From a virus (taxonomy: Duplodnaviria; Caudoviricetes): 34,521 nucleotides of DNA. The stretch's first letter is position 1. Every line of letters starts with the position of its first letter. The notes under the pieces were generated by a model, which saw only the letters and a list, made by a program, of their open reading frames with translations, did not search any database and had not been told where the DNA came from. This document shows, piece by piece, positions 726 to 27,705 of this stretch. The position numbers and the translations under genes are program-made. The stretch lies in the IMG/VR virus record IMGVR_UViG_3300028394_000193, positions 1-34,521 of that record; one strand, given 5' to 3'.

Positions 726-1696
726 TGGCTGTTCAGATTCAGCTTAGAAACGGAACCGCCTCGCAGTGGACCTCTGCTAACCCAACCCTTGCTGTTGGCG
801 AGATGGGCGCTGAGACTGATACCGGAAGATTTAAGATTGGTACAGGCTCAACGGCTTGGAACAGCCTTGGCTATTCACTTGGGGTTGCGTCTAAAGGAAC
901 GTATTCCGGCGCAACGCAATACTATGTAAACGACATTGTTCTATACAACAGTTCAAGTTACATCTGTATCCTAGCCTCGTTAGGTAATCTTCCAACCAAC
1001 GGAACTTATTGGAACCTTTTGGTTCAGGCTGGCGCTGTCTCATCTGTAGCGCAAACATTTACTGGCGGTATTGTTTCGGTTGCCGGTTCTCCAATTACAG
1101 GATCAGGAACGCTGGCTTTGACGGTCGCTGGCACTAGCGGCGGTGTTCCTTATTTTTCAAGCAGTAGTGCTTGGGCATCCTCGGCTGCGTTGGCAGCTAA
1201 TGCTCTGGTTATTGGTGGAGGTGCTGGCGCGGCCCCTGCAACGACTACAACTGGGACTGGCGTTCTTACATTCTTGGGAACCCCGTCAAGTGCCAATCTG
1301 TTGTCAGCTATGACTGATGAGACTGGCACTGGTTTGCTGGTATTTAATAGCGCCCCTGCGTTGACCAACCCAACGGTTACGAACTACGTTGAGACGCTTC
1401 ACTCGGCCAATACCGGCACAGCAATTACAGTTGATTTAACAAACGGTACGGTTCAGAACCTGACGCTGACGGGTAACGCCACAATCACGATGCCCACGGC
1501 GGTAGCGGGTAAGTCATTCATTATCATCTTGTCTCAAGACGGAACTGGCGGCAGAACGGTTACTTGGTCAACTGTATCTTGGCCTTCTGCTACAGCGCCA
1601 ACAGTCACCAGCACCGCGAGCAAACGGGATATTTTCTCGTTCTTCTCTAATGGATCAAGCTGGTTTGGAACCACTATCGGCCAGAACTACACATAA
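725..1696 (+). CDS. Tail fibre protein with Mtd_N (major tropism determinant N-terminal-like) domain
   Basis: QIQLRNGTASQWTSANPTLAVGEMGAETDTGRFKIGTGSTAWNSLGY matches the Mtd_N/hyaluronidase-N pattern. The body is G/T/S-rich. Confidence 0.8.
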   Translation: MAVQIQLRNGTASQWTSANPTLAVGEMGAETDTGRFKIGTGSTAWNSLGYSLGVASKGTYSGATQYYVNDIVLYNSSSYICILASLGNLPTNGTYWNLLVQAGAVSSVAQTFTGGIVSVAGSPITGSGTLALTVAGTSGGVPYFSSSSAWASSAALAANALVIGGGAGAAPATTTTGTGVLTFLGTPSSANLLSAMTDETGTGLLVFNSAPALTNPTVTNYVETLHSANTGTAITVDLTNGTVQNLTLTGNATITMPTAVAGKSFIIILSQDGTGGRTVTWSTVSWPSATAPTVTSTASKRDIFSFFSNGSSWFGTTIGQNYT

Positions 1697-3663
1697 TGTT
1701 TGCTGCATCTAAATCAAGCCGAGTAGCGGCGGTTGCTACGGACCCGTTTTTTCCGTATGTCCCGTTGCTGTTAAATACAACCAGCACTAACGGGCAGCAG
1801 AACAACACGTTCTTAGATTCTTCAACGAACAACTTCACCATTACCCGCAACGGAACGCCGACGCAGGGTTCTGTGACTCCGTATTGGCCTAATGGGTATT
1901 GGAGTAACTTTTTTAGTGGAACTACTCAATATGTTAGTGTTGGTGGAACCACATCTTTATCTGCAAATTTTACAATAGAGTTTTGGTTTTTTCCAACTGC
2001 TTCTGCAAATAGTAATTTTTTTGGTATAGATGACACGCAAAATCCAAACTCTTTAGCCTGCACATATAATGCAGGTGGCCCAACTATTAATGTTTTTGCT
2101 GATGCGGGAACCCCAATTAGCGGCGGCGCCCCATTAGTTTTAAATTCTTGGAATCATGTAGCATTGGTTAGAAGCGGTTCTACTGTAACCGTATATGTAA
2201 ATGGGGTTCAAAAAGCTACTGGTAGCGTCCCCAATGCCATTAGCGGCTCCTTGCAAATTGGAAGATGGTTAGATTCCGGGTCATACACAAATGGTATTAC
2301 TGGGTACCTATCTAATTTTAAGGTTTCAAATACCAACATATATAGTGGAAGCACTTTTTCTGTTCCAACTTCTCCATTAACATCTTCTGCAAATACTTTA
2401 TTACTAACCTTACAAGACAACAGGGTAAAAGACAATTCTTCAAGTCCAAAAACATTAACTGTTTCTGGTTCCCCCCGAACCCAAGCATTCCAGCCGTTCT
2501 CACCAACGGCTTCCTACACTGCTGCGGCGTATGGGGGAAGTGGGTATTTTAATGGCAGTACGGACTACTTGAGTTTGGCAAGCAGTGCCGCTTTTGGTGT
2601 TGGAACCGGAGATCTAACAATTGAAGCGTGGGTTTACTGCACTTCTTTGTCTAATGTGTATCAAGGAATTATTTCAACAAGGGTTGAAACACCTGCAAAT
2701 TACCCCGGTCTTGGTTTGGTGATTGACAATAGCAGAATACAATTTACTATCTTAAATTTAAGCGGAGCTTTGACTGATAGTGCAAACATTCCATTAAACC
2801 AATGGGTTCATGTTGCTGGAGTTAGGTCCGGAACAAATGCGGCCTTGTTTGTAAACGGGGTAAGAAAGGCATCTGGCACAAACTCAGAAAACGGGACTGC
2901 GGCCACTCTTGTTATTGGAAGATATTACACCGGGTCTAATAATTACTATATAAACGGTAATCTTTCTAACATTCGATTGGTCAAGGGAACGGCGGTTTAT
3001 GACCCAACTCTAACCACTCTTACCGTTCCAACAACACCGCTAACAGCAATCACCAACACCAGCCTCTTGACCAACTTCACCAACGCGGGGATCTACGACG
3101 CTGCGGTGCAGAACAATGTGATTACAGTTGGAGACGCTCAGGCGTCAACCACGCAGTCTAAGTGGCCTCCGACAAGCATGAAGTTTGATGGGACTGGAGA
3201 CTGGTTGACTGCTATAGACAATCCGCAGCTTCAGCTTGGTACGGGCGATTTTACGATTGACGGATGGCTGTACCTGTCTGCAAACGGCGTTGTTTACGGG
3301 CTTGTCAGCAAGGGAACGGCGACAACGGGATGGTCGGTCAACGTAACAGTATTAAACAAACTTCAGTTTAGCTATACGGCGTCCAACTTGACTGGCACAA
3401 CAACATTAGCCACAGGCACTTGGTATTATTTTGCTGTTGTTCGATCTGGTAGTGCAACCGGAAACCTCAAGGTTTATCTAAACGGATCGGTTGAAGCAAC
3501 TAGCGGCGGCGCTGTGACGGACAACTTTAACCAAACAAATATTCTGTATGTTGGTGCGGATCGGGTTGGCGCAATGCCTGTAAACGGATACTTGCAAGAC
3601 GTTCGGATTACCAAATACGCACGCACCATCACGACGCCAACAGCAGCATTCTTTACGAGGTAA
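1696..3663 (+). CDS. Tail adhesin with three ConA-like/LamG (Laminin_G_3) domains
   Basis: Three repeats of the form FTIE.W...W.HVA.VR.G....L(F/Y)VNG...L.IG...GY(L)..(I/V)R(I/V). It is translationally coupled (TAATG). Confidence 0.85.
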   Translation: MFAASKSSRVAAVATDPFFPYVPLLLNTTSTNGQQNNTFLDSSTNNFTITRNGTPTQGSVTPYWPNGYWSNFFSGTTQYVSVGGTTSLSANFTIEFWFFPTASANSNFFGIDDTQNPNSLACTYNAGGPTINVFADAGTPISGGAPLVLNSWNHVALVRSGSTVTVYVNGVQKATGSVPNAISGSLQIGRWLDSGSYTNGITGYLSNFKVSNTNIYSGSTFSVPTSPLTSSANTLLLTLQDNRVKDNSSSPKTLTVSGSPRTQAFQPFSPTASYTAAAYGGSGYFNGSTDYLSLASSAAFGVGTGDLTIEAWVYCTSLSNVYQGIISTRVETPANYPGLGLVIDNSRIQFTILNLSGALTDSANIPLNQWVHVAGVRSGTNAALFVNGVRKASGTNSENGTAATLVIGRYYTGSNNYYINGNLSNIRLVKGTAVYDPTLTTLTVPTTPLTAITNTSLLTNFTNAGIYDAAVQNNVITVGDAQASTTQSKWPPTSMKFDGTGDWLTAIDNPQLQLGTGDFTIDGWLYLSANGVVYGLVSKGTATTGWSVNVTVLNKLQFSYTASNLTGTTTLATGTWYYFAVVRSGSATGNLKVYLNGSVEATSGGAVTDNFNQTNILYVGADRVGAMPVNGYLQDVRITKYARTITTPTAAFFTR

Positions 3664-8470: not shown

Positions 8471-8545
8471 CACCCCGGTAGGGGTGTCATTGTGCCCTCA
8501 CAATACTGTGATATTAGCTGGGTTCCCCAATAAGGAACCCAGCTA
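8470..8545 (+). promoter_or_regulatory. Structured intergenic leader, including a 12-bp hairpin occluding the RBS/start of the phosphoesterase
   Basis: Hairpins are ACACCCC-GGTA-GGGGTGT (8470-8487), ATTGTG-CCCT-CACAAT (8489-8504) and TAGCTGGGTTCC-CCAATAA-GGAACCCAGCTA (8515-8545). The last covers the GGA of the SD and the A of ATG. Confidence 0.7.
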
Positions 8546-9501
8546 TGATAGTCAAGGTATCTGATAAAGACTTCTTGGAGGCTTGGGAAAAGCACAAGTC
8601 CCCGGCAGCACTTGCAAAGTTGTTTAAAATGTCTGAACGCCGCGTCCACAGCAGGCGACGTTCATTAGAAAACCGTTTAAACATCAAGCTCACTGCTGAA
8701 AAACTAATCCCACCACACCTAAAGAAAGCCCGCCATCAAGCAGGTTTAACAGACGGGATAGTTCTAGTATTTAGTGATGCCCACTTCTGGCCCGGCATCA
8801 GAAGCACCGCGTTTAAAGGTCTTCTGTGGGCAATCAAAGAACTCAAGCCCCACGTCATCATTAACAACGGAGACGCATTTGATGGTGCCGCGATCAGCAG
8901 ATATCCTAGAATTGGTTGGGGTCATCAGCCCTCGGTTCGACAGGAGCTAGAAGCTTGTCAGGAAGCTCTAGGAGAGATTGAAAAAGCAGCACACAAGGCT
9001 AGGCACCACACACAACTGATATGGCCTTTGGGCAATCATGACAGCCGATTTGAGACTAAGTTAGCTCAGTCGGCATCAGAGTTTGAAGGGGTTTCAGGTT
9101 TATCTCTCAAAGACCATTTCCCCAAATGGCATGCTTGTTGGTCATGTTGGTTAACTGATAACGTGATTGTCAAACACCGATATAAGGGTGGCATTCACGC
9201 TACGCATCAGAATACCCAGTCAGCCGGGATTTCGATAGTAACTGGGCATCTACACAGTTTAAAATGTACCCCGTACAGTGACTACCGGGGCACGAGATTT
9301 GGGGTCGATACCGGAACATTGGCAGAGATCGATGGTCCACAGTTTATGGACTATCTGGAAGATTCGCCTGTAAACTGGAGATCTGGCTTCGCGGTTCTTA
9401 CATTCAAGGACTCAAAGATGTTATGGCCGGAGTTGGTAAGTAAGCACGAAGATGGGATAATAGACTTTCGTGGTCAACTCATTGATGTAAGTGGGTTCTA
9501 A
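8545..9501 (+). CDS. Calcineurin-like metallophosphoesterase with N-terminal HTH-like region
   Basis: Full motif set: SDAH, GDAFD, GNHD, H (KHRY), GHLH. Confidence 0.9.
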   Translation: MIVKVSDKDFLEAWEKHKSPAALAKLFKMSERRVHSRRRSLENRLNIKLTAEKLIPPHLKKARHQAGLTDGIVLVFSDAHFWPGIRSTAFKGLLWAIKELKPHVIINNGDAFDGAAISRYPRIGWGHQPSVRQELEACQEALGEIEKAAHKARHHTQLIWPLGNHDSRFETKLAQSASEFEGVSGLSLKDHFPKWHACWSCWLTDNVIVKHRYKGGIHATHQNTQSAGISIVTGHLHSLKCTPYSDYRGTRFGVDTGTLAEIDGPQFMDYLEDSPVNWRSGFAVLTFKDSKMLWPELVSKHEDGIIDFRGQLIDVSGF

Positions 9502-16674: not shown

Positions 16675-18008
16675 ACTTGATTCAAATCACTGAACAGTTG
16701 AAGAACCCCGCTATTAGCGTTCCTCAGTTGATGCAGTACGCAAACAACTCCAACCCTCAAGTGCCTTCATATGTTGCCCTCGCAGAAATGCAAAGACGGC
16801 AATCTATGCAAGCACCTGCACAAGCTCCTCAACAGACAGTGAAAGATCAGCTTGGCGCACAGCTAATGGGATTACCTGCTGCCCCCGGTGCAAATCCCGG
16901 TGCTGCACCGCAACAATCTCCGCAACAGCCGCAGGGAGCACAACCTCCGCCTATGCAGACTCCAATGCCGCAATCCCAACCTGCACTTCCCACTCAACCG
17001 GGAATGATGCCGGGGATGGCTGGCGGCGGTCTGACATCCATCCCTTTAAATTATGCTTCCGGTGGAATGATTGCTTTTGCTGATGGTGGATACCCTGCTG
17101 GGTATGAACTCCCGCAAGAGAAGACACTTGAAGATATTCGTTTGGAACGTGAAGCAGAAGAGCTTAAGCGAGGGATATCCCGAGATCCATACGCAGATGT
17201 TAAACGCCGCTACGCCGAAATCGAGGCAAGGCAAAAAGAAGCCGAGAAGGGCGCTGGCGCTAACAAAATAATTTCTTCTCTTGCTGCTATGGGTGCTGGT
17301 GGCCCACGCCAGTTTGGTGATGTTATGGCTTCATATGCCAATACATCCACAAACATTGAAAAAGAACAGCAGAAGCTTTCAGAGCAGAACGCTATGAAGA
17401 TGGCGGATCTTCAAATGGCATTTGCCGAGAAAGAAGATGCTCGACGTAGGGGTGATTTGACTGGCGACCGCGCAGCGGAAGACAAGATTAAAACTTTACA
17501 AAGGGAAATTCTTGGACTTCGTCATCAGTACAAACAAGCTGAAGCTCAAACAACATCGGCTGGTGCCTCTGCTAAACAAGCAGAAACTCAAGCAAGCAAA
17601 GAAGCTTTTGACCAACAAAACTATCCAAAAGAGTTTGCACTCAAACAACAAGAAGTCCGAGCAAGGGTTGCTAACGCATTGCAAAAACCCGGCGAACTTC
17701 AGGTTATTGACAACATATATGCAGCACTAAAAGCAAAAGATCCAAAAGCAAGTTATCTTGATGCTGTTGAAAGTTATAAAATGGCCGGTGCCGGGGTTAA
17801 CAAATCCGGTGTGCTTACATTCAAAGATGCTCTTGAACTAGCAGGTAAGAATCCTTTGCTTAAAGGTGATGCCTTGATTCAAGAGGCAAAGAGACTGATG
17901 GCTGGTCAAAGTGGTGGGGTTGCTGGGTTGCCTAGACCATCTGCCGGTAAAAGCCCTTACTCTGATAAATCTGACGCTGAAATCAAAGCTGCACTAGGAA
18001 TCAAATAA
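16671..18008 (+). CDS. Putative internal virion/ejection protein
   Basis: P/Q-rich N-terminal region, YASGG/FADGG motifs and a long coiled coil. It is coupled to the giant gene by TAATG. Confidence 0.6.
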   Translation: MNLIQITEQLKNPAISVPQLMQYANNSNPQVPSYVALAEMQRRQSMQAPAQAPQQTVKDQLGAQLMGLPAAPGANPGAAPQQSPQQPQGAQPPPMQTPMPQSQPALPTQPGMMPGMAGGGLTSIPLNYASGGMIAFADGGYPAGYELPQEKTLEDIRLEREAEELKRGISRDPYADVKRRYAEIEARQKEAEKGAGANKIISSLAAMGAGGPRQFGDVMASYANTSTNIEKEQQKLSEQNAMKMADLQMAFAEKEDARRRGDLTGDRAAEDKIKTLQREILGLRHQYKQAEAQTTSAGASAKQAETQASKEAFDQQNYPKEFALKQQEVRARVANALQKPGELQVIDNIYAALKAKDPKASYLDAVESYKMAGAGVNKSGVLTFKDALELAGKNPLLKGDALIQEAKRLMAGQSGGVAGLPRPSAGKSPYSDKSDAEIKAALGIK

Positions 18009-21000
18009 TGGCCGATTTGGATTTGCTGCTTGAAGCCGAGCGTCGAGGTCTGCTGCCCGCTGATAAACAAGGTCTTTTAAACGAGGCGCGGTCCAGAGGT
18101 TTGATTGGTGGTGGGATTCAATCCCTAAAGCAACCACCTAAAGAGCGCACTTGGGGTGAAGCGGCAACTGATATTGCGGCAAGCGTTGGTAAAGGCTTAG
18201 GTCAAACCCTACAGGTTCCGGGTCAGTTGTATGGACTGATTACCGGAGATATGGAGACTCCGCAGGGGCCTCCGCAAAACACAGAAGAAGCCCAAAAAGC
18301 TTTAGTAAGAGGGGCGGGTAACGCTGTTATGCCGGGAATGACTGGCATTCAGGGTCTTGGTAAACGACTTGAGGAATATTCCGAATCTAAGAAATCTGAC
18401 GTTCTAAAAGCCAAAGAGGCAGAGCGCAATCGTCTTATTCAAGAAGCAGAAAGCAAAGGTCTTTTGGAACAGGCAAAAGCCGCTGGCGCTGCAACCATTA
18501 CAGACCCCGCTCTTTTGACCAGCTTCTTGGCAGAGATGGCACCTAATATGTTGCCGGTTGGGGCTGCTGCGCGGCTTGGACGGGGCGTGGTGCTTGGCGG
18601 ACAACTCGCCAAAGGGGTTGGACGAGAAGCTGCTGAATTGGCGGCGCAGAAGGCTGGAACCCGCGCAGCATTAGGCACTGGCGCTGTCATGCAAGGCGCT
18701 GATGTAGGTACAGACACCTATGAAGAGGCATACAGAGAACTTATTGCTAAGGATGTTCCTCCAGACCAAGCAAAGCAAAGAGCTTTAAACCTTGCGCGAG
18801 CTTCTGGTCTTAGTGCCGCTGCGGTCTCTCTGTTAGCCCAAAAACTTCCCGGCGCACGGCGATTGGAAGAATCGTTTGCCGGTAAGGCAGGTGTTGCAGG
18901 ACGCGCTGTCGGTGCTGTCAAAACAGGGCTTGGAGAAAGTTACTCTGAAGGGTTTGAAGAAGCTGGCGGCGCATTTGGCAAGAACCTTGCAATGCGCGAC
19001 ATCAACCCTGAGTATGACCTAACCAAAGGGGTTGGCACGGCAGGGGCGTTAGGTGCTATTGGTGGGGTTGGTCTTGGTGGCGTCGCCGGTGCTTTGCAAA
19101 GACAGGCACCTACAGAAATGCCCAAAGAGGTTCCCCCGATACCAGAGCCTACAGAACCAAAAACGGTTGAGCCATTACGGATTGGGTACAGCCCAACGGT
19201 TGAAGATGTGGTTGAGAAAGACACTCTTCAAAACCCCGTGGGCAACTTCACGCCTAACGAACTCACACCTGAGATTGTGAAGTTTGTTAACAACCTTAGG
19301 AAAGAAGAAGGCAAACCTAAGCTCAAGGCATTCTCTATTGAAGACCTTGTAGAAGCTGGTGCTCCTCCGCAAGAGATTGACCGTTTGCTTGCCTATAAGA
19401 ATCAGTTTGATGGATCGGTAACGCTCTCGGCAGCAGATGTAACTAACATTGCACAACAACGCAATGTAGATACTGAAACCAAAGGGTTTACAGATTTCCT
19501 TCGCAGGGCTACGGGGCAGGAAGATTTAACCCAGATGTCGCAGCCGCAGCTACATTCTGCGTTTGTTGCTTTAAACGCTCTTGATACGTCGCCGGAGCTT
19601 AGGGTTCTTCCTGAAGGAACCAACGCAGTTCGTTTCACTGACAAGCAATACGACAGAGGTCTTAGGGGTGTTGCATTTCAACTTGGTCAAAGTCCTGCTG
19701 TAGGGAGGACTAGTGTCATTCAACAAATCAAAGACTACACGGGACTTGAGAATGATCAAGATGCTCATGTTTTACTTCGTACAGCCATTAGGAATGGTGA
19801 TCTTGAATCAAAGCGCGTACCTCAGTATGAAGTTGTAAATAATGAAGGTAAGGTTCAGTGGGTTAGTAATAGCAGGGAAGCTGCGTTGCGCGGTGCGGAA
19901 AAACGCGGGTTCAACGTTCGCGATGGATTCCGTGAAGAGATCTCATACCCCGGAGAGGCCACGCAACTACCCGGAGGCCCCGACATTCGCATGGGGATGT
20001 TTCAAGAAGGCGAAAGACCAGAGGGCTTTGAAATCAAAGCTGGAAGCACTGTTCTTAGTGTTTCTAACAATGAGACTGATGCCAACGAAAAAGCTGCGCG
20101 GCTAAGTGCTTTACGTGAGCAAGAAGCCAAAAGCACACAAAAGAATATTAACGAACTTAACAAAAAGATTCTTGCCAGCCAGAATGAACTTGAGCGGATG
20201 GAGGCCACCGGGCAGGGGAATTCATTAGAGTTTGCTCAACTGTCCGCAAGTGTCAACGCAGACAACCAAGCTCTTGTAGACCAGACCAACCAGCTAAAGA
20301 AAGATTTAAACGACTATCAGCAGCCAGTCACAGTAGTTCCAACCAAGTCCGTTACCCCTATCGTTCGTGAAGGGTTCACCTTCTTTGATAACGGCGCAGC
20401 GGTTGCATCCTTTCCAACGCAACAGCAAGCAGAAGAGTTTGCTCTTGCCCGTTTAAACAATGAAACGCTAACCAACATTGTTAACGTTGGCCCAACCCTA
20501 AAGGGGTTGATGCCTAAGCGTCTTGCAAAGATGGCTGAAGCGGAGCTTGCCTCTCGCGGTAGGACCGAACCCGGAATTGAAGTTAAGTTTGAAGGCACTG
20601 AAGAAGAAGCACGTGAGCGGCTTGCCAAACTTGGCATCTTTTCTGCTGATGTTCAATCTAAAGTGGCAGAACTTGAGAAAGCCCTGCTACCGGCTTTGCG
20701 TAAGCTTGGCCTTGAGCGAGTTGCTTTAAACATTGTAAGAGAGATTGAGAACAACGCAGAGGGTAACTATGCTGCGGGGGTCATCAAAATCTCTCTGGAC
20801 AACGAACCCGGAAACTATCTGGGTGTTCTGCGCCATGAATCTATCCATGCTCTTAAAGAGTTGGGTGCCTTCACAGCTAAAGAGTGGGCAGTCCTAAACA
20901 AACAAGCTAAGGAAGTGTGGGTTCCTCAGTACATGAAGAACCGCGCAACTGAATACAAGGGCAAACAAACCTCTTTGTATGATGCCTACCGAGACATATA

Positions 21001-24000
21001 TAAAAGAAACAAACTAAAAACCGGCGAAATCACACAAGAAGAATTTAACAACAATGATCCCAAGGCGCTTGCGGGGTTTGATGAGTACATCCAAGAGGAA
21101 GCTATTGCTGAAGCTTTCCGGTATTGGAAGCCTCAAGCTGGTTTCTTTGGAAACATGGGATACCGGCTTTCCAAGATGTTTGACGCTATCAAGAATGCGT
21201 TTAAAGGTCTTGGGTTTAGAACTGCCGACTCGGTCTTTGAGAAGGTCGAAGCAGGAAAGATGCGTCCGAAGGGTGAAGGTAAGGGAGAGGCAAAGTTTTC
21301 TTTGCGTCAATACAAACTTGATATTAAACGTCAAAAACGAGTTGTTCAGGAAATTGTTGATTTGCCTGTTAATGAACAAGCTGCTATTGAGCGTGATGCT
21401 CAAGAAATGGATTTACCAAAAGCAAGGGTTGATGAGCTAATTAAACAAGTAAAGGCTGATAAAAAACGATACCCCGAGAAACAGGGCTGGGCACCGCTTG
21501 AAGTTATTGGCATTGATGTTACATTGGACGATGAAGGAAAACCAATACGCGGAACCGAGGCTCCAAAGTATAAATCTATTCCTTATGAATACAATGTTCC
21601 AACAGGAAAAAACAAAGCGCCCACAAAGGTAGACCCAATATGGTTGGGCAAAGTAACCAAAGAATTTCAAAAACTTGTTCAACAGATTTACACTAGAGCA
21701 AGCAAAGGGGACACAAACGCACAAGGAATCATTGCACATCAAACTTGGTATAAGAACGTAGCCAAAACTCTTCGTAATGAATACGGTGGTTTTGGTGATG
21801 TACTGGCAGACCTTCTTGGTGCTACAAGCCCTAACACGCCTGTTGATACCAATTGGAGATTCTCCATTGATGTGATGCGCCGATTTGTGCGTGGCGACTT
21901 TAACTCTGATTTAGAAAAGTTTTCTAAACATCTTGAAGATGGAAAGCCCGCATCTTCTTTCCCTTCACAAGATAAGATTCGCCAGATAAGTGGCAAGCTT
22001 TATGGGATGAACTCCACGAATGCAATGCTTGCACTTGTGGATGCTTGGAGGCAAATCAAACCCGGACAAGCACCCAAAGCCCGTAACTTTGCCCTTAATC
22101 TTATTGGGCAATCAAACATTGCCACAATTGACGTATGGGCTGCGCGTATGTTGCGCCGCGCCGCAAATGCCATTTCAAAAGGCGAGTACGCTCGCATCCC
22201 CCCTCCTGCGGAGAAGGGGGTTTCTGGAGTTTGGAACACAGATGCAACAGAGATTACTGGTGCGTTTGGGTTTGGCGCAGAAGTTATGCGTCAGGTTTCT
22301 GCAAACCTAAAGAAGAAGGGCATCAACATTGAACCCCCAGACCTGCAAGCAATTGCTTGGTTTGCAGAAAAGGAATTGTGGGGGACCAAGGGTTGGACTT
22401 CAAAGGTAGGGGAAGGCGGTTCGTTTGAAGAGAACATTGAAAAGAATCCAGCAGACCGCTACTTGGCTGGGCATTCAATTCAAGTTGGGGAAACCACGCC
22501 ACTTCCAGAAGACGTTTACAAAGTACAGCAGGACGTTCTTGATGTACTTCAAAAAGACCCAAGTGTTATTGCGGTTCGTGTCAAACCCACTAAGGGTTTG
22601 TACGGGGGGACGGTTGAAGAGTCATTTGATAGCGAGTGGGTTGTAGACAGAAACACGTTTAAACCTGATGTCATCGTTTCGAAGATTGCTGAAGTTTCAA
22701 AGGCCAACCAACAGTACGACATTTTTGTTTCTAGAGTTATTCCTCCTAACGAGGACAACCCCAACGCCAGACCCGGCATCGAACTGTACTTCAAGACCGA
22801 AGAAGATTTAAACAATGTAATGCCTATCCTCAAGTCCTTTACAGACAAAGGGCAGGATGGCTTTACGTTGGCTGTAGACCCACGTGCTACGGGCGATTCC
22901 AACTTGTACATGGGGGTACGGCTTCAGTACGTACCAGAAATCTCCATGCGCTGGGATGAAGAGCTTCGTGAGAAGCTAAAAAATCCTCAAGAACTTGAAA
23001 GGATTCTTGCGGAAAAAGCACAAACACTCGAAGACATTGCCAGCGAAATTTCTCAAGAAGAAGGCGTTGCTTACGCGGCAGTGTTACAGTACGACACAAT
23101 AGTAATAGGGAAGGAAAACTACGATGCCTACATTAGCGGAGCAACTTCCGGGCAAGATAGCGCGGTTGGAGAAAAAGTTTGGTTCGGACAACCGGTTCGT
23201 GAACATGTTGAAGCAGCAGCTAAACGCTATACAGCAGGGCAAGTCGACGAAGCAGTTGTACCAGATGGGGGCGAAGCAGAGGCCCGATACAGTCTTAGAC
23301 CTACAGAACCTTCCGTTCGACCCAGCACAGGCGGCGGGCGAGGCATCACTCTTGGAGAGCGACAGGAAGGAGCGGGAACGTTCAGCGGCATCCACTACGG
23401 CAAAGCCAAAACAGAAAGACTAAGCGGGAGTATGTTTGGCTCCGGCATTCGCGGAGAAGAATCCAAACGGTTAGCTCAGAGCAGGGACCCACGTATCAAG
23501 CGGCGGGTCTACTTCTACATCCCCAATGATGTTGGGTTTGTGATGCGCCCAGAAGCAGGTTTGGGCCAGCACGTTTACACGCAGACCTTTGACAACATCC
23601 TCCCCTCTGGGGATGAGATGTCTCGTCTATACCGTTCCGTAGACAAAGACTTCAATGCGTTTGAAAGCGCAGTGGTTGATGCGGGTTACGATGGATACGC
23701 AGTCCCTTCGCAAGGGATGATGGTCATTCTTAACCACAACGTTCCGGTTAAGTACGAAGGTCTTGCCAACGAACTCCGTACTCAAGGCAAGCTTGTAAAC
23801 AACAAGATTAAGTACAGCCTTCGCGCCAACCCGGCCCAGACAGAAACGCCTGAGTTTAAACAGTGGTTTGGCAAGAGCAAGATAGTCAACAAAGAAGGCG
23901 AACCCAAGGTCATGTACCACGGCACTTCCCGTGACATTACTACGTTCCGCCCTAAACAAGCTGGTGCCATTTTTGTAACTGACAACCCAGACTTTGCTCA

Positions 24001-27000
24001 TATCTTTTCTGGGTTTTCAGAAAAGTACATGGTCAAAGAGTTTGAAAACAAACTTTCAAATGAAGAAAAAAAACAACTTTTGCTTGAAGTTTTAGAGAAA
24101 ACAAAAAAAGAACTTCCGCAACTTACAGTCAAAAGACTTCTTGATAACATAAACAATTCTCAAAATCTTTATGTAGGCCCCGGCGGTTTTCTTACCCAAG
24201 CCCACTTTCTTAATGTTCCTTTTGGAAGCAATTTAGTTAAGGAAGTACAAGCTAGATTAGAGTCGCGTCAAAACATAATGCCTGTATATGTAAGGGCAGA
24301 GAATCCTTTTGACTACAAAAACGAAGAGCATGTAAACAAACTTGTAAATGCAGTATCAAAGCTTTCTGAAAATAAACAAAACGAACTGTATGATGAGTTG
24401 GGGCTTGAGCCAATAGAAAAAACTAGACTATTGGATTTTAAGAATGCTATTGAAGATGGCGTATGGGAAGCAATAGAATCGCCAGAAGTTCAGAAACTTA
24501 TTAAGAAGTTTGGGCACGACGGTTTCTACATCATAGAAGCAAAGGAAAGAAACCTTGCCGTCTATGAGCCATCGCAAATCAAATCTGCGACCGGCAACAT
24601 CGGCACATTCGACATCACCAACCCAGACATCCGTTACTCTGTCCGGGCAAATCTTCCTGCCTCCACTAACGCACGTATTGATGCGACTACGGGGCAGAGA
24701 AAAACCGAAGGGTTCATGGATCGAATCCTTAGTATCTTTAATCCTGATACCCGTGCAAAGCTTCGTGCTGGCTTTATCTTCCAGTTTGAAGCCCTTGAAA
24801 GAGGCACCAAGGCCCGCGCAGCTAAGTATGGTAACCGTGAGTACATGGCGGACGTATCTGCCACTGCCGCCGCTCTGGAGTCGATGCGGTCGAAACAGAT
24901 CGTTGCCGCCGCGATGCGTGACGGAGTTCCGGTTTACCGCAACGGCTTCACCACCACAGACAATTTAAACGGCACACAGAAGGGTCTTCTGGATATCTTC
25001 TCGCCACTTGCTGCAACTGGTGATCCGGATGTTTGGAGATGTTTCCAGTACTACGCTGGTTCTAAACGCGGAGCCAGACTAGATGCCGAAGGTCGCGAGC
25101 ATCTGTTTACACAAACGGACGTACAGGCAGCGAACGCTATGGCCGCGCAGTTTAAACGAGATGGCATAGATTTTGATGCGGTCTACAAGGAATATCAGAA
25201 ATGGAATGATGCCCTTGTTAAGTACATGAAAGATACGGGGGTTCTGTCTGCCGCCGATGCTGCGTACTTCACCAAGTTTGGGGATTACATTCCGTTCTAT
25301 CGCCAGATGGACGGCGAATCCACGGTGGGTCCTAAGATCTTCTCTGCGATTGCCGGTGTTCAGAAACCTAAAGCGTTGAAGGGTGGAACTGAAAAGCTTG
25401 GTGACTTCCTTGAGAACGTGATACGTAATGCTTCTGCCGCTGTTGATGCTGGTATGAAGAACGTTGCCGCGAATCGAGGTATTAGAGATGCGCTCGACCT
25501 TGGGACTGCGCGGCAGGTAAATGTTCCTAATCAGGACTCAGTCAGCGTTAAAGAGAACGGCGTTACCAAGCACTACGAACTTGATGACCCGCTCCTCTTT
25601 GAAGCGTTTAAAGGTCTTAACGTTCCTCGGATGCCTTGGCTACAGATTCTTGCAGCGCCAGCGGATGTGCTTCGGAACTTCGTGACCAAGGACCCCGGAT
25701 TCATTCTGGCTAACATCATGCGTGACTCTGTCTCGGCATGGGTTACCTCGGGTTCAGATATGAAGCCCGTGATTGATTCGTTTAAACAGTTTGGCAAGAT
25801 TCTTGCTAACCAATCCCCGGAAGCGGTTGCTATGGCTAAGGCCGGTCTAGGTGGGTATGAGTTTAAAGGCTCCCTCAAAGACAGCGCAGAAGCCTTTGAG
25901 AAGGCTTTGAGAGCTAAGACAGGAACCAGAACTAAGACCGAGAAAGCTTTGCTTCCAGTTACCGCTCTTTGGGACATGCTTGAGCAAGGCTCTAATGCCT
26001 CTGACTTGGCAACCCGCGCAGAGATCTATAAGCGCACTTTAGCTAAAACCGGCAACGAAGCAGAGGCACTGTTCCAAGCATCGGAGGTGATGAACTTCTC
26101 CCGCCGTGGGAGCTTCCAAGTGATGCAGATCCTTACCGCTGTCGTTCCATTTATGAACGCCCGCATCCAAGGTTTGGATGTTCTCTATCGCTCTGGGTTT
26201 GGTCAGGCCGCGAACGTTAACAAAGAGCGGATGCAGAAAGCTTTCATTGTTCGTTCTCTTTCGATCCTTGCTATGACAGCGGCTTACTGGGCATTAGTCC
26301 ATGACGATGACGAATACAAGAAACTTACAAAGGAAGAACGTGACGGATACTGGATTGTTCCGGGGCTGACCTTCAACGACAAGCCCTTCCGGTTCCCGAT
26401 CCCGTTTGAGATTGGCGTGCTGTTTAAAGTGTTCCCTGAGCGTATCCTAGAATACACAATGGGTCAGGACACCGAGAAGGACTTCAGGGAATCAATCACC
26501 CGCAACATTGTAGATACGCTCAAGTTCAATCCAATACCTCAAGCGTTCATCCCTATCTATGAAAACATCAGCAATCATTCCTTCTTTACAGGAGAGAAGA
26601 TTGTTGGTCGCGGTCTTGAGGATGTAGCTAAACCTCTTCAGTACACCGCATCCACATCACTTGGGGCGCGGTGGCTGGGAGAACAAACCGGCATGTCTCC
26701 AATACAGATAGACAACGTTATCCGGGGCTACACGGGCACAATGGGTATGTACGCGGTCAACATGCTGGACTCGGTCTTTTCGAGCCAAGGAGACCCAGTT
26801 AAAGCCACTACAAGGGCGGAGCAGTTGCCTGTTATTAAGAGGTTCTTTGCCTCTGATTCTGGTACGGTCGCTCAGTACTACGATCTGAAAGACGAGGTTG
26901 ATGAGGTTGTACGTACAGTTAATTTCTTGGAAAGAAACGATCCAGATAAGCTAGAGGAATATCTTAAAAAGAATGAGAACACTTACATGTTGAAAGACTT

Positions 27001-27169
27001 TGTAAGGTCTATTGATAAAGATATGAAACAGATTAGAGAATATCGCGGCGCGGTTAACGCAGACAAAGATATGAGTGGCGATGAAAAGCGCGTAATCCTA
27101 GATGAGCTTCATCAATACGAAGTGGCTCTAACCGCTGATATCAAGGCAATCAGAAAAGAGTTCCATTAA
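18008..27169 (+). CDS. Large polyvalent virion protein (3053 aa): zincin, HhH-GPD-like, SAM-lyase-like, two ART-like domains, LPD38
   Basis: Motifs in order: HESIH at 20834 with EEAIAE at 21095; ATSPN/PKARNF/TIDVW/LQAIAW; GLYGGTVEESF...QQYDIFV; IHYG...RVYFY...GYDGY; FKQWFGKSKIV...YHGT...QIKSATGNIGTFD; DDEYKKL...YWIVP...IPFEIG. Confidence 0.85.
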   Translation: MADLDLLLEAERRGLLPADKQGLLNEARSRGLIGGGIQSLKQPPKERTWGEAATDIAASVGKGLGQTLQVPGQLYGLITGDMETPQGPPQNTEEAQKALVRGAGNAVMPGMTGIQGLGKRLEEYSESKKSDVLKAKEAERNRLIQEAESKGLLEQAKAAGAATITDPALLTSFLAEMAPNMLPVGAAARLGRGVVLGGQLAKGVGREAAELAAQKAGTRAALGTGAVMQGADVGTDTYEEAYRELIAKDVPPDQAKQRALNLARASGLSAAAVSLLAQKLPGARRLEESFAGKAGVAGRAVGAVKTGLGESYSEGFEEAGGAFGKNLAMRDINPEYDLTKGVGTAGALGAIGGVGLGGVAGALQRQAPTEMPKEVPPIPEPTEPKTVEPLRIGYSPTVEDVVEKDTLQNPVGNFTPNELTPEIVKFVNNLRKEEGKPKLKAFSIEDLVEAGAPPQEIDRLLAYKNQFDGSVTLSAADVTNIAQQRNVDTETKGFTDFLRRATGQEDLTQMSQPQLHSAFVALNALDTSPELRVLPEGTNAVRFTDKQYDRGLRGVAFQLGQSPAVGRTSVIQQIKDYTGLENDQDAHVLLRTAIRNGDLESKRVPQYEVVNNEGKVQWVSNSREAALRGAEKRGFNVRDGFREEISYPGEATQLPGGPDIRMGMFQEGERPEGFEIKAGSTVLSVSNNETDANEKAARLSALREQEAKSTQKNINELNKKILASQNELERMEATGQGNSLEFAQLSASVNADNQALVDQTNQLKKDLNDYQQPVTVVPTKSVTPIVREGFTFFDNGAAVASFPTQQQAEEFALARLNNETLTNIVNVGPTLKGLMPKRLAKMAEAELASRGRTEPGIEVKFEGTEEEARERLAKLGIFSADVQSKVAELEKALLPALRKLGLERVALNIVREIENNAEGNYAAGVIKISLDNEPGNYLGVLRHESIHALKELGAFTAKEWAVLNKQAKEVWVPQYMKNRATEYKGKQTSLYDAYRDIYKRNKLKTGEITQEEFNNNDPKALAGFDEYIQEEAIAEAFRYWKPQAGFFGNMGYRLSKMFDAIKNAFKGLGFRTADSVFEKVEAGKMRPKGEGKGEAKFSLRQYKLDIKRQKRVVQEIVDLPVNEQAAIERDAQEMDLPKARVDELIKQVKADKKRYPEKQGWAPLEVIGIDVTLDDEGKPIRGTEAPKYKSIPYEYNVPTGKNKAPTKVDPIWLGKVTKEFQKLVQQIYTRASKGDTNAQGIIAHQTWYKNVAKTLRNEYGGFGDVLADLLGATSPNTPVDTNWRFSIDVMRRFVRGDFNSDLEKFSKHLEDGKPASSFPSQDKIRQISGKLYGMNSTNAMLALVDAWRQIKPGQAPKARNFALNLIGQSNIATIDVWAARMLRRAANAISKGEYARIPPPAEKGVSGVWNTDATEITGAFGFGAEVMRQVSANLKKKGINIEPPDLQAIAWFAEKELWGTKGWTSKVGEGGSFEENIEKNPADRYLAGHSIQVGETTPLPEDVYKVQQDVLDVLQKDPSVIAVRVKPTKGLYGGTVEESFDSEWVVDRNTFKPDVIVSKIAEVSKANQQYDIFVSRVIPPNEDNPNARPGIELYFKTEEDLNNVMPILKSFTDKGQDGFTLAVDPRATGDSNLYMGVRLQYVPEISMRWDEELREKLKNPQELERILAEKAQTLEDIASEISQEEGVAYAAVLQYDTIVIGKENYDAYISGATSGQDSAVGEKVWFGQPVREHVEAAAKRYTAGQVDEAVVPDGGEAEARYSLRPTEPSVRPSTGGGRGITLGERQEGAGTFSGIHYGKAKTERLSGSMFGSGIRGEESKRLAQSRDPRIKRRVYFYIPNDVGFVMRPEAGLGQHVYTQTFDNILPSGDEMSRLYRSVDKDFNAFESAVVDAGYDGYAVPSQGMMVILNHNVPVKYEGLANELRTQGKLVNNKIKYSLRANPAQTETPEFKQWFGKSKIVNKEGEPKVMYHGTSRDITTFRPKQAGAIFVTDNPDFAHIFSGFSEKYMVKEFENKLSNEEKKQLLLEVLEKTKKELPQLTVKRLLDNINNSQNLYVGPGGFLTQAHFLNVPFGSNLVKEVQARLESRQNIMPVYVRAENPFDYKNEEHVNKLVNAVSKLSENKQNELYDELGLEPIEKTRLLDFKNAIEDGVWEAIESPEVQKLIKKFGHDGFYIIEAKERNLAVYEPSQIKSATGNIGTFDITNPDIRYSVRANLPASTNARIDATTGQRKTEGFMDRILSIFNPDTRAKLRAGFIFQFEALERGTKARAAKYGNREYMADVSATAAALESMRSKQIVAAAMRDGVPVYRNGFTTTDNLNGTQKGLLDIFSPLAATGDPDVWRCFQYYAGSKRGARLDAEGREHLFTQTDVQAANAMAAQFKRDGIDFDAVYKEYQKWNDALVKYMKDTGVLSAADAAYFTKFGDYIPFYRQMDGESTVGPKIFSAIAGVQKPKALKGGTEKLGDFLENVIRNASAAVDAGMKNVAANRGIRDALDLGTARQVNVPNQDSVSVKENGVTKHYELDDPLLFEAFKGLNVPRMPWLQILAAPADVLRNFVTKDPGFILANIMRDSVSAWVTSGSDMKPVIDSFKQFGKILANQSPEAVAMAKAGLGGYEFKGSLKDSAEAFEKALRAKTGTRTKTEKALLPVTALWDMLEQGSNASDLATRAEIYKRTLAKTGNEAEALFQASEVMNFSRRGSFQVMQILTAVVPFMNARIQGLDVLYRSGFGQAANVNKERMQKAFIVRSLSILAMTAAYWALVHDDDEYKKLTKEERDGYWIVPGLTFNDKPFRFPIPFEIGVLFKVFPERILEYTMGQDTEKDFRESITRNIVDTLKFNPIPQAFIPIYENISNHSFFTGEKIVGRGLEDVAKPLQYTASTSLGARWLGEQTGMSPIQIDNVIRGYTGTMGMYAVNMLDSVFSSQGDPVKATTRAEQLPVIKRFFASDSGTVAQYYDLKDEVDEVVRTVNFLERNDPDKLEEYLKKNENTYMLKDFVRSIDKDMKQIREYRGAVNADKDMSGDEKRVILDELHQYEVALTADIKAIRKEFH
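23124..23423 (+). CDS. Nested out-of-frame (+1) small protein inside the giant gene
   Basis: SD AAGGA at 23111-23115, 8 nt before ATG. It begins with an amphipathic helical hairpin (TLAEQLPGKIARLEKKFG-SDN-RFVNMLKQQLNAIQQG). The main frame here is linker-like. Confidence 0.6.
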   Translation: MPTLAEQLPGKIARLEKKFGSDNRFVNMLKQQLNAIQQGKSTKQLYQMGAKQRPDTVLDLQNLPFDPAQAAGEASLLESDRKERERSAASTTAKPKQKD

Positions 27170-27705
27170 ACATTTTTCCAAGTGTGCCCTTTGGCTATAT
27201 TCCACAATGTGTGATAAGAAAACCCAGTTTCTTTTGCAAGTTTGGCTGGCGTAGATTCTTTTGATTTTAGTTTTTTAACTATATAAATTGGAACTTTAGC
27301 GGCGTGATGGTTTTCGCCTTCTGGGTAGAGACCGCGTTTTTGCCGGTCTTTCATATTTCCCTTTTGAACATCCCAACGAAGGTTTTCAATCTTGTTGTTT
27401 TCTGGATTGCTATCGTTGTGGCATGCAAGTTGCCCAAGTTTGGGTTGCCCAACAAAAGCAATTAGCATTGCTCTGCTTACAAGCATTGAGTATTTTTTAC
27501 CATTTGCACCAAATCTAAATTTTATATACCCGCATTTGTCTTTGTAAGTTGTTAATAACCTGCCTTTGTAATTTTGTTTAACCGTGGAGTTTGATAATCC
27601 ACAGTGTTTTTATACGGTTCTTGGATAGGTATAAACTCTTCCAAAATTTGAAACTGCAATAAATTCCTCAAAACCGGGCAAGTCTTTAAACTCCTCCCCT
27701 TGCAT
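27166..27705 (-). pseudogene. NUMOD4-HNH homing endonuclease interrupted by an in-frame TAA
   Basis: ATG 27705 gives MQGEEFKDLPGFEEFIAVSNFGRVYTYPRTV, then TAA (27612-27610). The same frame continues KHCG...KGRLL...GYIKF...MLVSRAMLIAFVG...CHNDSNPENNKIENLRW. Confidence 0.8.

Follow-up and report, generated by a model that had tools for sequence, protein, structure and literature searches.

How can a phage make and package SAM-destroying or base-excising enzymes without ruining its own late growth? This question is raised by a 34.5-kb linear phage record (34,521 nucleotides, analysed whole and hereafter called the window), most of which is found in two freshwater metagenome runs, with no RNA run among the 24 listed. 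Within one of its virion genes, just behind a predicted glycosylase and SAM-lyase-like block, a shifted reading frame opens a 99-codon ORF whose conserved 53-residue core offers a candidate safety catch.

Searches of domain and family libraries placed virion genes on the plus strand up to 27169, including tail fibres and one match to an ejection protein. The gene that closes this virion block, the host gene of the nested ORF (Table 1), encodes LPD38 (E = 2e-38) and ART-PolyVal (E = 1e-12) on the same long chain. Judged by these family matches, it is a phage polyvalent protein with LPD and ART-PolyVal domains on one chain. An ORF on the minus strand (27166–27486), which by its motif we take to resemble an HNH endonuclease, overlaps the polyprotein stop from the opposite strand. 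The family libraries also identified a tail protein with three laminin-G-like domains (1696–3663) and a metallophosphoesterase amid the virion genes (8545–9501). The host protein is like the polyvalent proteins of Iyer et al. 2017 (PMC5512222) in pairing LPD38 with ART-PolyVal, in its many modules per chain and in its virion context.

Table 1. Features of the host gene and the nested gene in the window.
Feature	Position	Strand	Basis
Host gene, 3053-aa phage polyvalent protein (DUF7178, ART-PolyVal, LPD38)	18008–27169	+	family matches
Predicted HhH DNA-glycosylase-fold domain (DUF7178); Lys1357 and Asp1375 invariant	21632–22429	+	family match, model, fold search, alignment
SAM-lyase-like ferredoxin-fold unit A (Gly1530, Tyr1532, Glu1537, Gln1569)	22442–22750	+	model, fold search, alignment
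Second ferredoxin-like unit B; the nested SD and ATG lie in its final codons	22754–23134	+	model, alignment
Shine–Dalgarno (SD) core AAGGA of the nested gene, written by host codons Lys-Glu	23111–23115	+	sequence
Nested +1-frame gene, 99 aa	23124–23423	+	sequence, recoding, variants, homologues
Conserved core, residues 1–53: predicted helical hairpin, G-x-D turn, short third helix	23124–23282	+	AlphaFold and family alignment
W-F-G-x-P motif and helix of the host frame, within the stretch that codes in both frames	23180–23236	+	homologues, block model
Host-frame module joint RYSLR; nested core and tail meet here	23285–23299	+	sequence, homologues
Exchangeable tail, DLxNLPFDP motif and predicted helix, common to nested genes with other N-termini	23298–23423	+	homologues
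Next host domain after the nested gene (HYG...RVYFY...YDGY), exchangeable among homologues	23375–23791	+	homologue comparison

A structure model of the block (host residues 1140–1745; pLDDT 90.6, pTM 0.88) forms a compact unit by itself. Three glycosylases matched model residues 66–334 with Z scores of 5.6–7.2, with T. maritima OGG (3N0U) at Z 7.2 over 181 aligned residues. K1357 and D1375, which we take to be the catalytic Lys and Asp positions of the HhH glycosylase family, are present in all 67 alignment rows that cover them, within a K...N.IG...TIDVW motif. For the SAM-lyase-like part, the best specific match was the phage SAM lyase 6ZM9 (rank 2, Z 8.1, r.m.s.d. 3.3 Å, 115 aligned residues), a score within 1 Z of unrelated ferredoxin-like folds, with an efflux pump at 9.0. 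Foldseek matched 6ZNB to the block with E = 0.032 and a probability of 0.96. Gly, Tyr, Glu and Gln are reported as conserved in SAM lyases (Gly56, Tyr58, Glu69 and Gln104; PMC7877911). The unit A residues that we equated to them by motif order and secondary structure are kept as G in 71/71, Y or F in 70/71, E in 70/71 and Q in 71/71 aligned sequences.

With moderate fold matches and the expected residues conserved, the block is predicted to be an HhH glycosylase joined to a SAM-lyase-like enzyme, in line with the identity that an earlier sequence-only reading had given it. Its glycosylase domain resembles HhH glycosylases (T. maritima OGG 3N0U, EndoIII and MagIII) by a moderate fold match and by its invariant Lys and Asp, and differs from them in being fused to SAM-lyase-like units. 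Likewise, a ferredoxin-like fold match and the G-x-Y...E-x-S...Q pattern recall the SAM lyases Svi3-3 (6ZM9, 6ZNB) and T3 SAMase (PMC7877911); unlike these small stand-alone oligomers, trimers whose sites lie at subunit interfaces, the block has its two units in tandem and joined to a glycosylase within a polyprotein. Among the homologues listed, the fusion occurs in 118 of 120, the other two ending within the glycosylase. A PDB sequence search with the block gave no match. Against cultured phages, units A and B together (A+B) gave no match and the glycosylase only distant mycobacteriophage relatives, and genome searches for A+B matched only the seed genomes (1/172 and 1/401).

The sequence-only reading had proposed that AAGGA, an 8-nt spacer and ATG open a +1-frame ORF where the folded main-frame domain ends. 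Both the sequence and the block model confirm this: the ORF, which is closed by TAA, starts at the end of the last domain of the block. The host gene has five shifted-frame ORFs of 30 or more codons that are led by an SD, and this one far exceeds the others in length. No sigma-70-type promoter was found upstream, and RNA structure over the start is not unusual (z = 0.56). The product lacks Cys and Trp and has 12 D/E, as had been stated, and so differs from seven other +1 ORFs taken from the host gene (at least two Cys plus Trp each, at most six D/E). It is not acidic, however; 17 K/R make it net basic. AlphaFold predicts helices at residues 4–19, 24–37, 42–48 and 67–91 (mean pLDDT 78.9, pTM 0.38), the first two giving the N-terminal helical hairpin of the earlier reading.

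Host-frame queries yielded 30 non-redundant homologous loci in addition to the window copy. As a null model, host amino acids were fixed and codons were redrawn from each gene's own usage, with 200 recodings per locus; the window copy, one locus with a misplaced anchor and three with host stops were left out, leaving 26 loci. Under criteria loosened after a stricter first pass, and in loci that are related and hence not independent trials, the start codon was present in 26/26 (14.9 expected), the +1 frame was open for 44 codons in 26/26 (12.6 expected) and the SD core was present in 24/26 (15.5 expected). All three occurred together in 24/26 loci, with 4.0 expected. The stricter pass over 28 loci pointed in the same direction (open frame, 25 versus 12.3 expected; start, 23 versus 10.8; SD, 25 versus 15.9). 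When scored with the family profile, the real +1 frame exceeded all 200 recodings in each of the 26 loci.

Conservation shifts from one frame to the other at the ORF. Across 20 gap-free loci, amino-acid identity in the upstream domain is 0.57 for the host frame and 0.27 for the +1 frame, and in the overlap 0.45 and 0.51, respectively; host third-position identity is 0.68 within the overlap versus 0.36 in the upstream domain. Population variants inside the nested ORF are silent in the +1 frame in 12/17 cases and in the host frame in 3/17. Outside it, 20/28 are silent in the host frame and 4/28 in the +1 frame, counting 28 of the 40 listed variant rows, to which 82 further rows exist. Thus, the conserved SD, ATG and open frame and the suppressed synonymous variation for which the sequence-only reading had looked to homologues were both found.

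Across clades, the start codon is retained in 58/59 loci and an SD core of at least 4 nt in 53/59, the latter spelled by host K-E, Q-E or G-G codons depending on the clade. In L004, where the host Asp is replaced by Arg, the nested start becomes GTG. An in-frame stop directly precedes the ATG in L023, L087 and L089, which argues for initiation over frameshifting; with the kept starts and SDs, it led us to reject +1 frameshift entry. Judged by these comparisons of related sequences, 23124–23423 is a genuine nested gene that carries its own ribosome-binding site and is under purifying selection in the +1 frame. In two short contigs (L046, 1349–1400; L047, 2990–3070), host-frame stops lie near the overlap and the +1 gene is open; these stops may be errors or decay.

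The main frame over this stretch had been read as linker, which is correct for only part of it. Over ORF codons ~20–36, the host frame conserves W-F-G-x-P-x-R in the nested loci and is confidently modelled as a packed helix, so that about 17 codons of the overlap code in both frames. Linkers of giant virion genes can thus carry two coding frames, and annotation therefore overlooks a protein family that has at least 171 profile matches. Host-frame conservation, such as the K and D of GKENYD, can signal a hidden gene and not an enzyme.

The core is free of stops in the +1 frame in all 56 non-redundant loci that have a complete unit B. These comprise 44 loci found with host-frame queries, 11 found with small-protein queries and the window copy, and 12 of the 56 had contributed rows to the profile that detects the core. 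Excluded were four loci that are truncated and four that lack a unit-B match. The stops or missing SD and ATG that the sequence-only reading had named as refuting its proposal are thus not the pattern of homologues with the same block. Three further loci carry the core behind the block, one weakly (11 bits). Reciprocally, a distant small-protein profile found 16 loci, of which 14 lie directly behind the same block and 2 are unrelated matches. The small gene therefore travels with the upstream block, as had been suggested.

The position behind the block is fixed across clades at about 30–65% block identity. The domain downstream of the nested gene varies widely among loci, on which ground we rejected a linkage of the core to that domain. 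Carriers of the block range from ~900-aa proteins to polyproteins of >3500 aa. A large clade of ~900-aa phage proteins (P0177–P0281, L050 and L051) ends with the glycosylase and SAM-lyase-like block; in L050 and L051, the block is followed by the small gene and then by another large gene, the nested gene filling the gap. The host frame ends before the small gene does in 19 loci, plus two in which it ends only at a contig edge. Its earliest stop lies 7 codons into the small gene, and the family pattern persists there; in this early-stopping clade, the small gene is nearly free-standing. These loci form one branch of an unrooted FastTree phylogeny. We dropped the free-standing form as the ancestral one, as a midpoint root would make nesting older, though the tree is unrooted.

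Three control loci that have one enzyme part only lack the small gene. L144 is a glycosylase-only phage protein. L146 and L147 are stand-alone A+B proteins of bacteria; there the +1 frame is closed, and other residues take the place of the host Lys and Asp whose codons spell the SD and ATG.

The pattern L8, G20, V26, L29, Q32 and L33 is kept over 114 small-protein sequences, with variable surface residues. The small-protein profile matched 171 proteins at E ≤ 0.001 among 50%-identity representatives, and nearly all of 150 listed matches are 43–201 aa long, a few long repeat proteins being chance matches. Searches of Pfam, PHROGs, NCBIfam and PADLOC gave no match to the 99-aa protein, and the 114 family members gave only single weak Pfam matches. 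A fold search returned generic hairpins (best Z 6.0) and no lead, matches in the ESM Atlas were below 0.9 and all without a name, and cultured phages gave one doubtful match (E = 0.6). Subfamily A7 was not found in viral contigs. Judged by alignment, the conserved core (residues 1–53) founds a family without a name in the libraries searched. In the main texts of the mostly open-access literature searched, neither this family nor any gene nested in a polyvalent protein was found described; the words 'overlapping', 'linker' and 'glycosylase' are absent from the main text of Iyer et al. 2017 (PMC5512222).

The net charge is +7 over residues 1–53, and the family median is +1 (range −6 to +8; negative in 28/114). 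DNA-mimic inhibitors of the Ugi and Ocr type are acidic, with a strong net negative charge, and we rejected an acidic DNA mimic on these charges.

Because its C-terminal half is a tail common to other nested genes, the 99-aa product is, as far as homologues tell, a chimera of which only residues 1–53 belong to the cassette of the block. The tail starts with DLQNLPFDP just past the host joint RYSLR. It has 18 non-redundant copies, carried by nested ORFs whose N-termini are unrelated; the domain that follows is the same as in the window for 10 of them and another one for 7, and 1 copy lies at a truncated locus. Motif-bearing ORFs ahead of the HYG domain have an in-frame SD-led start in 12/12 cases, and the nested ORF of L126 is little beyond the tail. 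Of the four variants that fall in the tail region, three are synonymous in the +1 frame. Over 12 loci, tail identity is 0.72 in the +1 frame versus 0.45 in the host frame, a biased comparison that we did not count as a test because the loci were picked by their +1 motif. Other members of the small-protein family bear other recurring tails. A (K/R)(F/Y)S(L/V)R motif is repeated at module borders of the host protein (residues 1096, 1760, 1935 and 2209); it could mark where a protease cuts or where modules recombine.

The HYG domain behind the nested gene conserves H-Y-G, G-x-G-x-x-G-x-E, R-V-Y-F-Y and G-Y-D-G-Y. It is possibly ART-like; the ESM Atlas gave a lead to ART-PolyVal (0.90) in 29% of one cluster, and Pfam and PDB sequence searches gave no match. 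Nested +1 ORFs lie about 210–260 nt upstream of the HYG domain in L103, L105, L119, L121 and L124. These five loci and P0012, P0013 and P0024 hold other nested +1 families with their own SD and ATG and the LPFDP tail. A DDPIY-type motif occurs in several of these families, and P0024 joins three such pieces.

From gene order and co-occurrence, we tentatively propose, at somewhat below an even chance, that the small protein is a cognate inhibitor that would bind the block and hold it inactive in the virion-building cell. The polyprotein would be virion cargo ejected with the DNA, as described for polyvalent proteins (PMC5512222) and likewise for P1 Dar proteins (PMC12810830). By destroying SAM and excising bases, the block would blunt SAM-dependent restriction on entry and would harm late phage growth. 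Type I restriction and BREX are overcome when SAM is destroyed (bioRxiv 10.1101/2023.02.27.530186), and phage SAM lyases are toxic to the producing cell when expressed (PMC7877911). Translation of the partner would begin at the internal SD of the late mRNA that also encodes the enzyme, and the partner would therefore be made wherever and whenever the enzyme is. It would then be left behind or stripped at ejection, so that the enzyme would work only in the new host. Nesting would let enzyme and partner shuffle as one cassette with the polyprotein unbroken, and recombination at (K/R)(F/Y)SLR joints would swap the tail of the nested gene together with the next host domain. Several points count against inhibition. 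The core is neutral to basic, the fold matches of the block are moderate, and both the glycosylase and the SAM-lyase-like part also occur separately with no small gene (three loci only), so that neither strictly needs protection in those settings. The text available for PMC7877911 describes no cognate small partner of phage SAM lyases.

The linkage data (56/56 and 14/16 loci) are also what a folding or virion-loading partner would produce, one that keeps the block soluble or ejection-competent and is maybe packaged with it. Such a role would suit the occurrence of the small gene only with the fused block in a phage virion-gene context and its absence from the bacterial stand-alone A+B proteins; P1 Dar proteins, small accessory members included, load in order (PMC12810830). 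However, the small gene follows one enzyme block and not the carrier, which varies in size and in its downstream domains, and the block alone already models as compact; we regard a loading role as rather unlikely. An activating subunit, or a protein that would target a host component of the same pathway (such as SAM synthetase or a restriction complex) and would share no more than its purpose with the block, seems distinctly improbable. The lack of acidity and the variable surface would fit it, and the weak fold matches of the block include 7ock, titled 'MAT in complex with SAMH', a title by which SAM lyases engage host proteins. Yet a core of 53 residues that is made late and is no enzyme has no obvious way into the next cell other than by packaging, and a position linked without exception is more usual for cognate pairs.

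The remaining alternatives deny a function to the product as such. If translation of the nested frame mattered and not its product (through mRNA protection, folding pace or coupling to the next gene), or if a +1 frameshift gave an alternative C-terminus, freely varying tails would be expected, as would the clade whose nested gene fills the gap between the block gene and the next large gene. We hold this to be very unlikely given the amino-acid pattern kept in 114 sequences, also where the host frame has ended, and given the kept starts and the stops directly upstream in three loci. Finally, part of the +1 sequence follows from the host motifs GKENYD and WFGxP, and recoded nulls score up to 33 bits, as would suit an ORF that is a shadow of conserved host residues and no gene. 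The recoding, variant and start/SD evidence, and the persistence of the family past a host-frame stop that comes as early as 7 codons in, make this scarcely credible.

Lambda Rz1 in Rz and phiX174 E in D and B in A are embedded out-of-frame phage genes, and the Rz and Rz1 products cooperate. As in these cases, the nested gene lies on the same strand, has its own ribosome-binding site and is wholly inside another gene in a shifted frame. Unlike them, it marks one module of a 3053-aa multi-domain protein and is shuffled with it, swaps its C-terminal tail at module joints and encodes a product without a family match. A second parallel is offered by MuF polymorphic toxins, in which small ORFs follow 89.4% of the toxin genes (PMC5576092). 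Shared with them are a phage carrier, an enzymatic module and then a small (<150 aa) ORF without known domains, co-inherited just past that module. In contrast to a MuF carrier with a C-terminal toxin, no MuF domain was found in the host gene, the host frame runs on across the small gene and the block is internal in the window, being C-terminal only in the ~900-aa clade. By analogy, the small gene would act in the manner of an immunity ORF that follows an enzyme carried by a phage, and it is laid out like an embedded gene, being neither a MuF system nor an acidic mimic.

A broader version of the inhibitor reading, on balance doubtful but worth stating, is that each harmful cargo module brings a nested +1 safety protein and that joint-motif recombination shuffles both frames, building chimeric mini-proteins; in the window, the hairpin would serve the glycosylase and SAM-lyase-like block and the attached tail would accompany the next domain. 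If true, an immunity system would be written within the toxin gene itself, and polyvalent genes would hold a hidden second modular layer.

Outside phages, Caballeronia/Burkholderia plasmids encode a stand-alone A+B protein that is 31% identical and keeps G-x-Y, E, S and Q. Two such proteins lie at L146:7851–8798 (NZ_CP084275.1, LDZ21_RS26885) and L147:7833–8852 (NZ_AP022319.1). The L146 gene adjoins annotated type VI secretion genes (VgrG, DUF4150 and DUF2169), and in L147 a nearby gene presumably resembles TssC. The plasmid A+B proteins are possibly a secreted SAM-degrading effector or a regulator in cultured bacteria.
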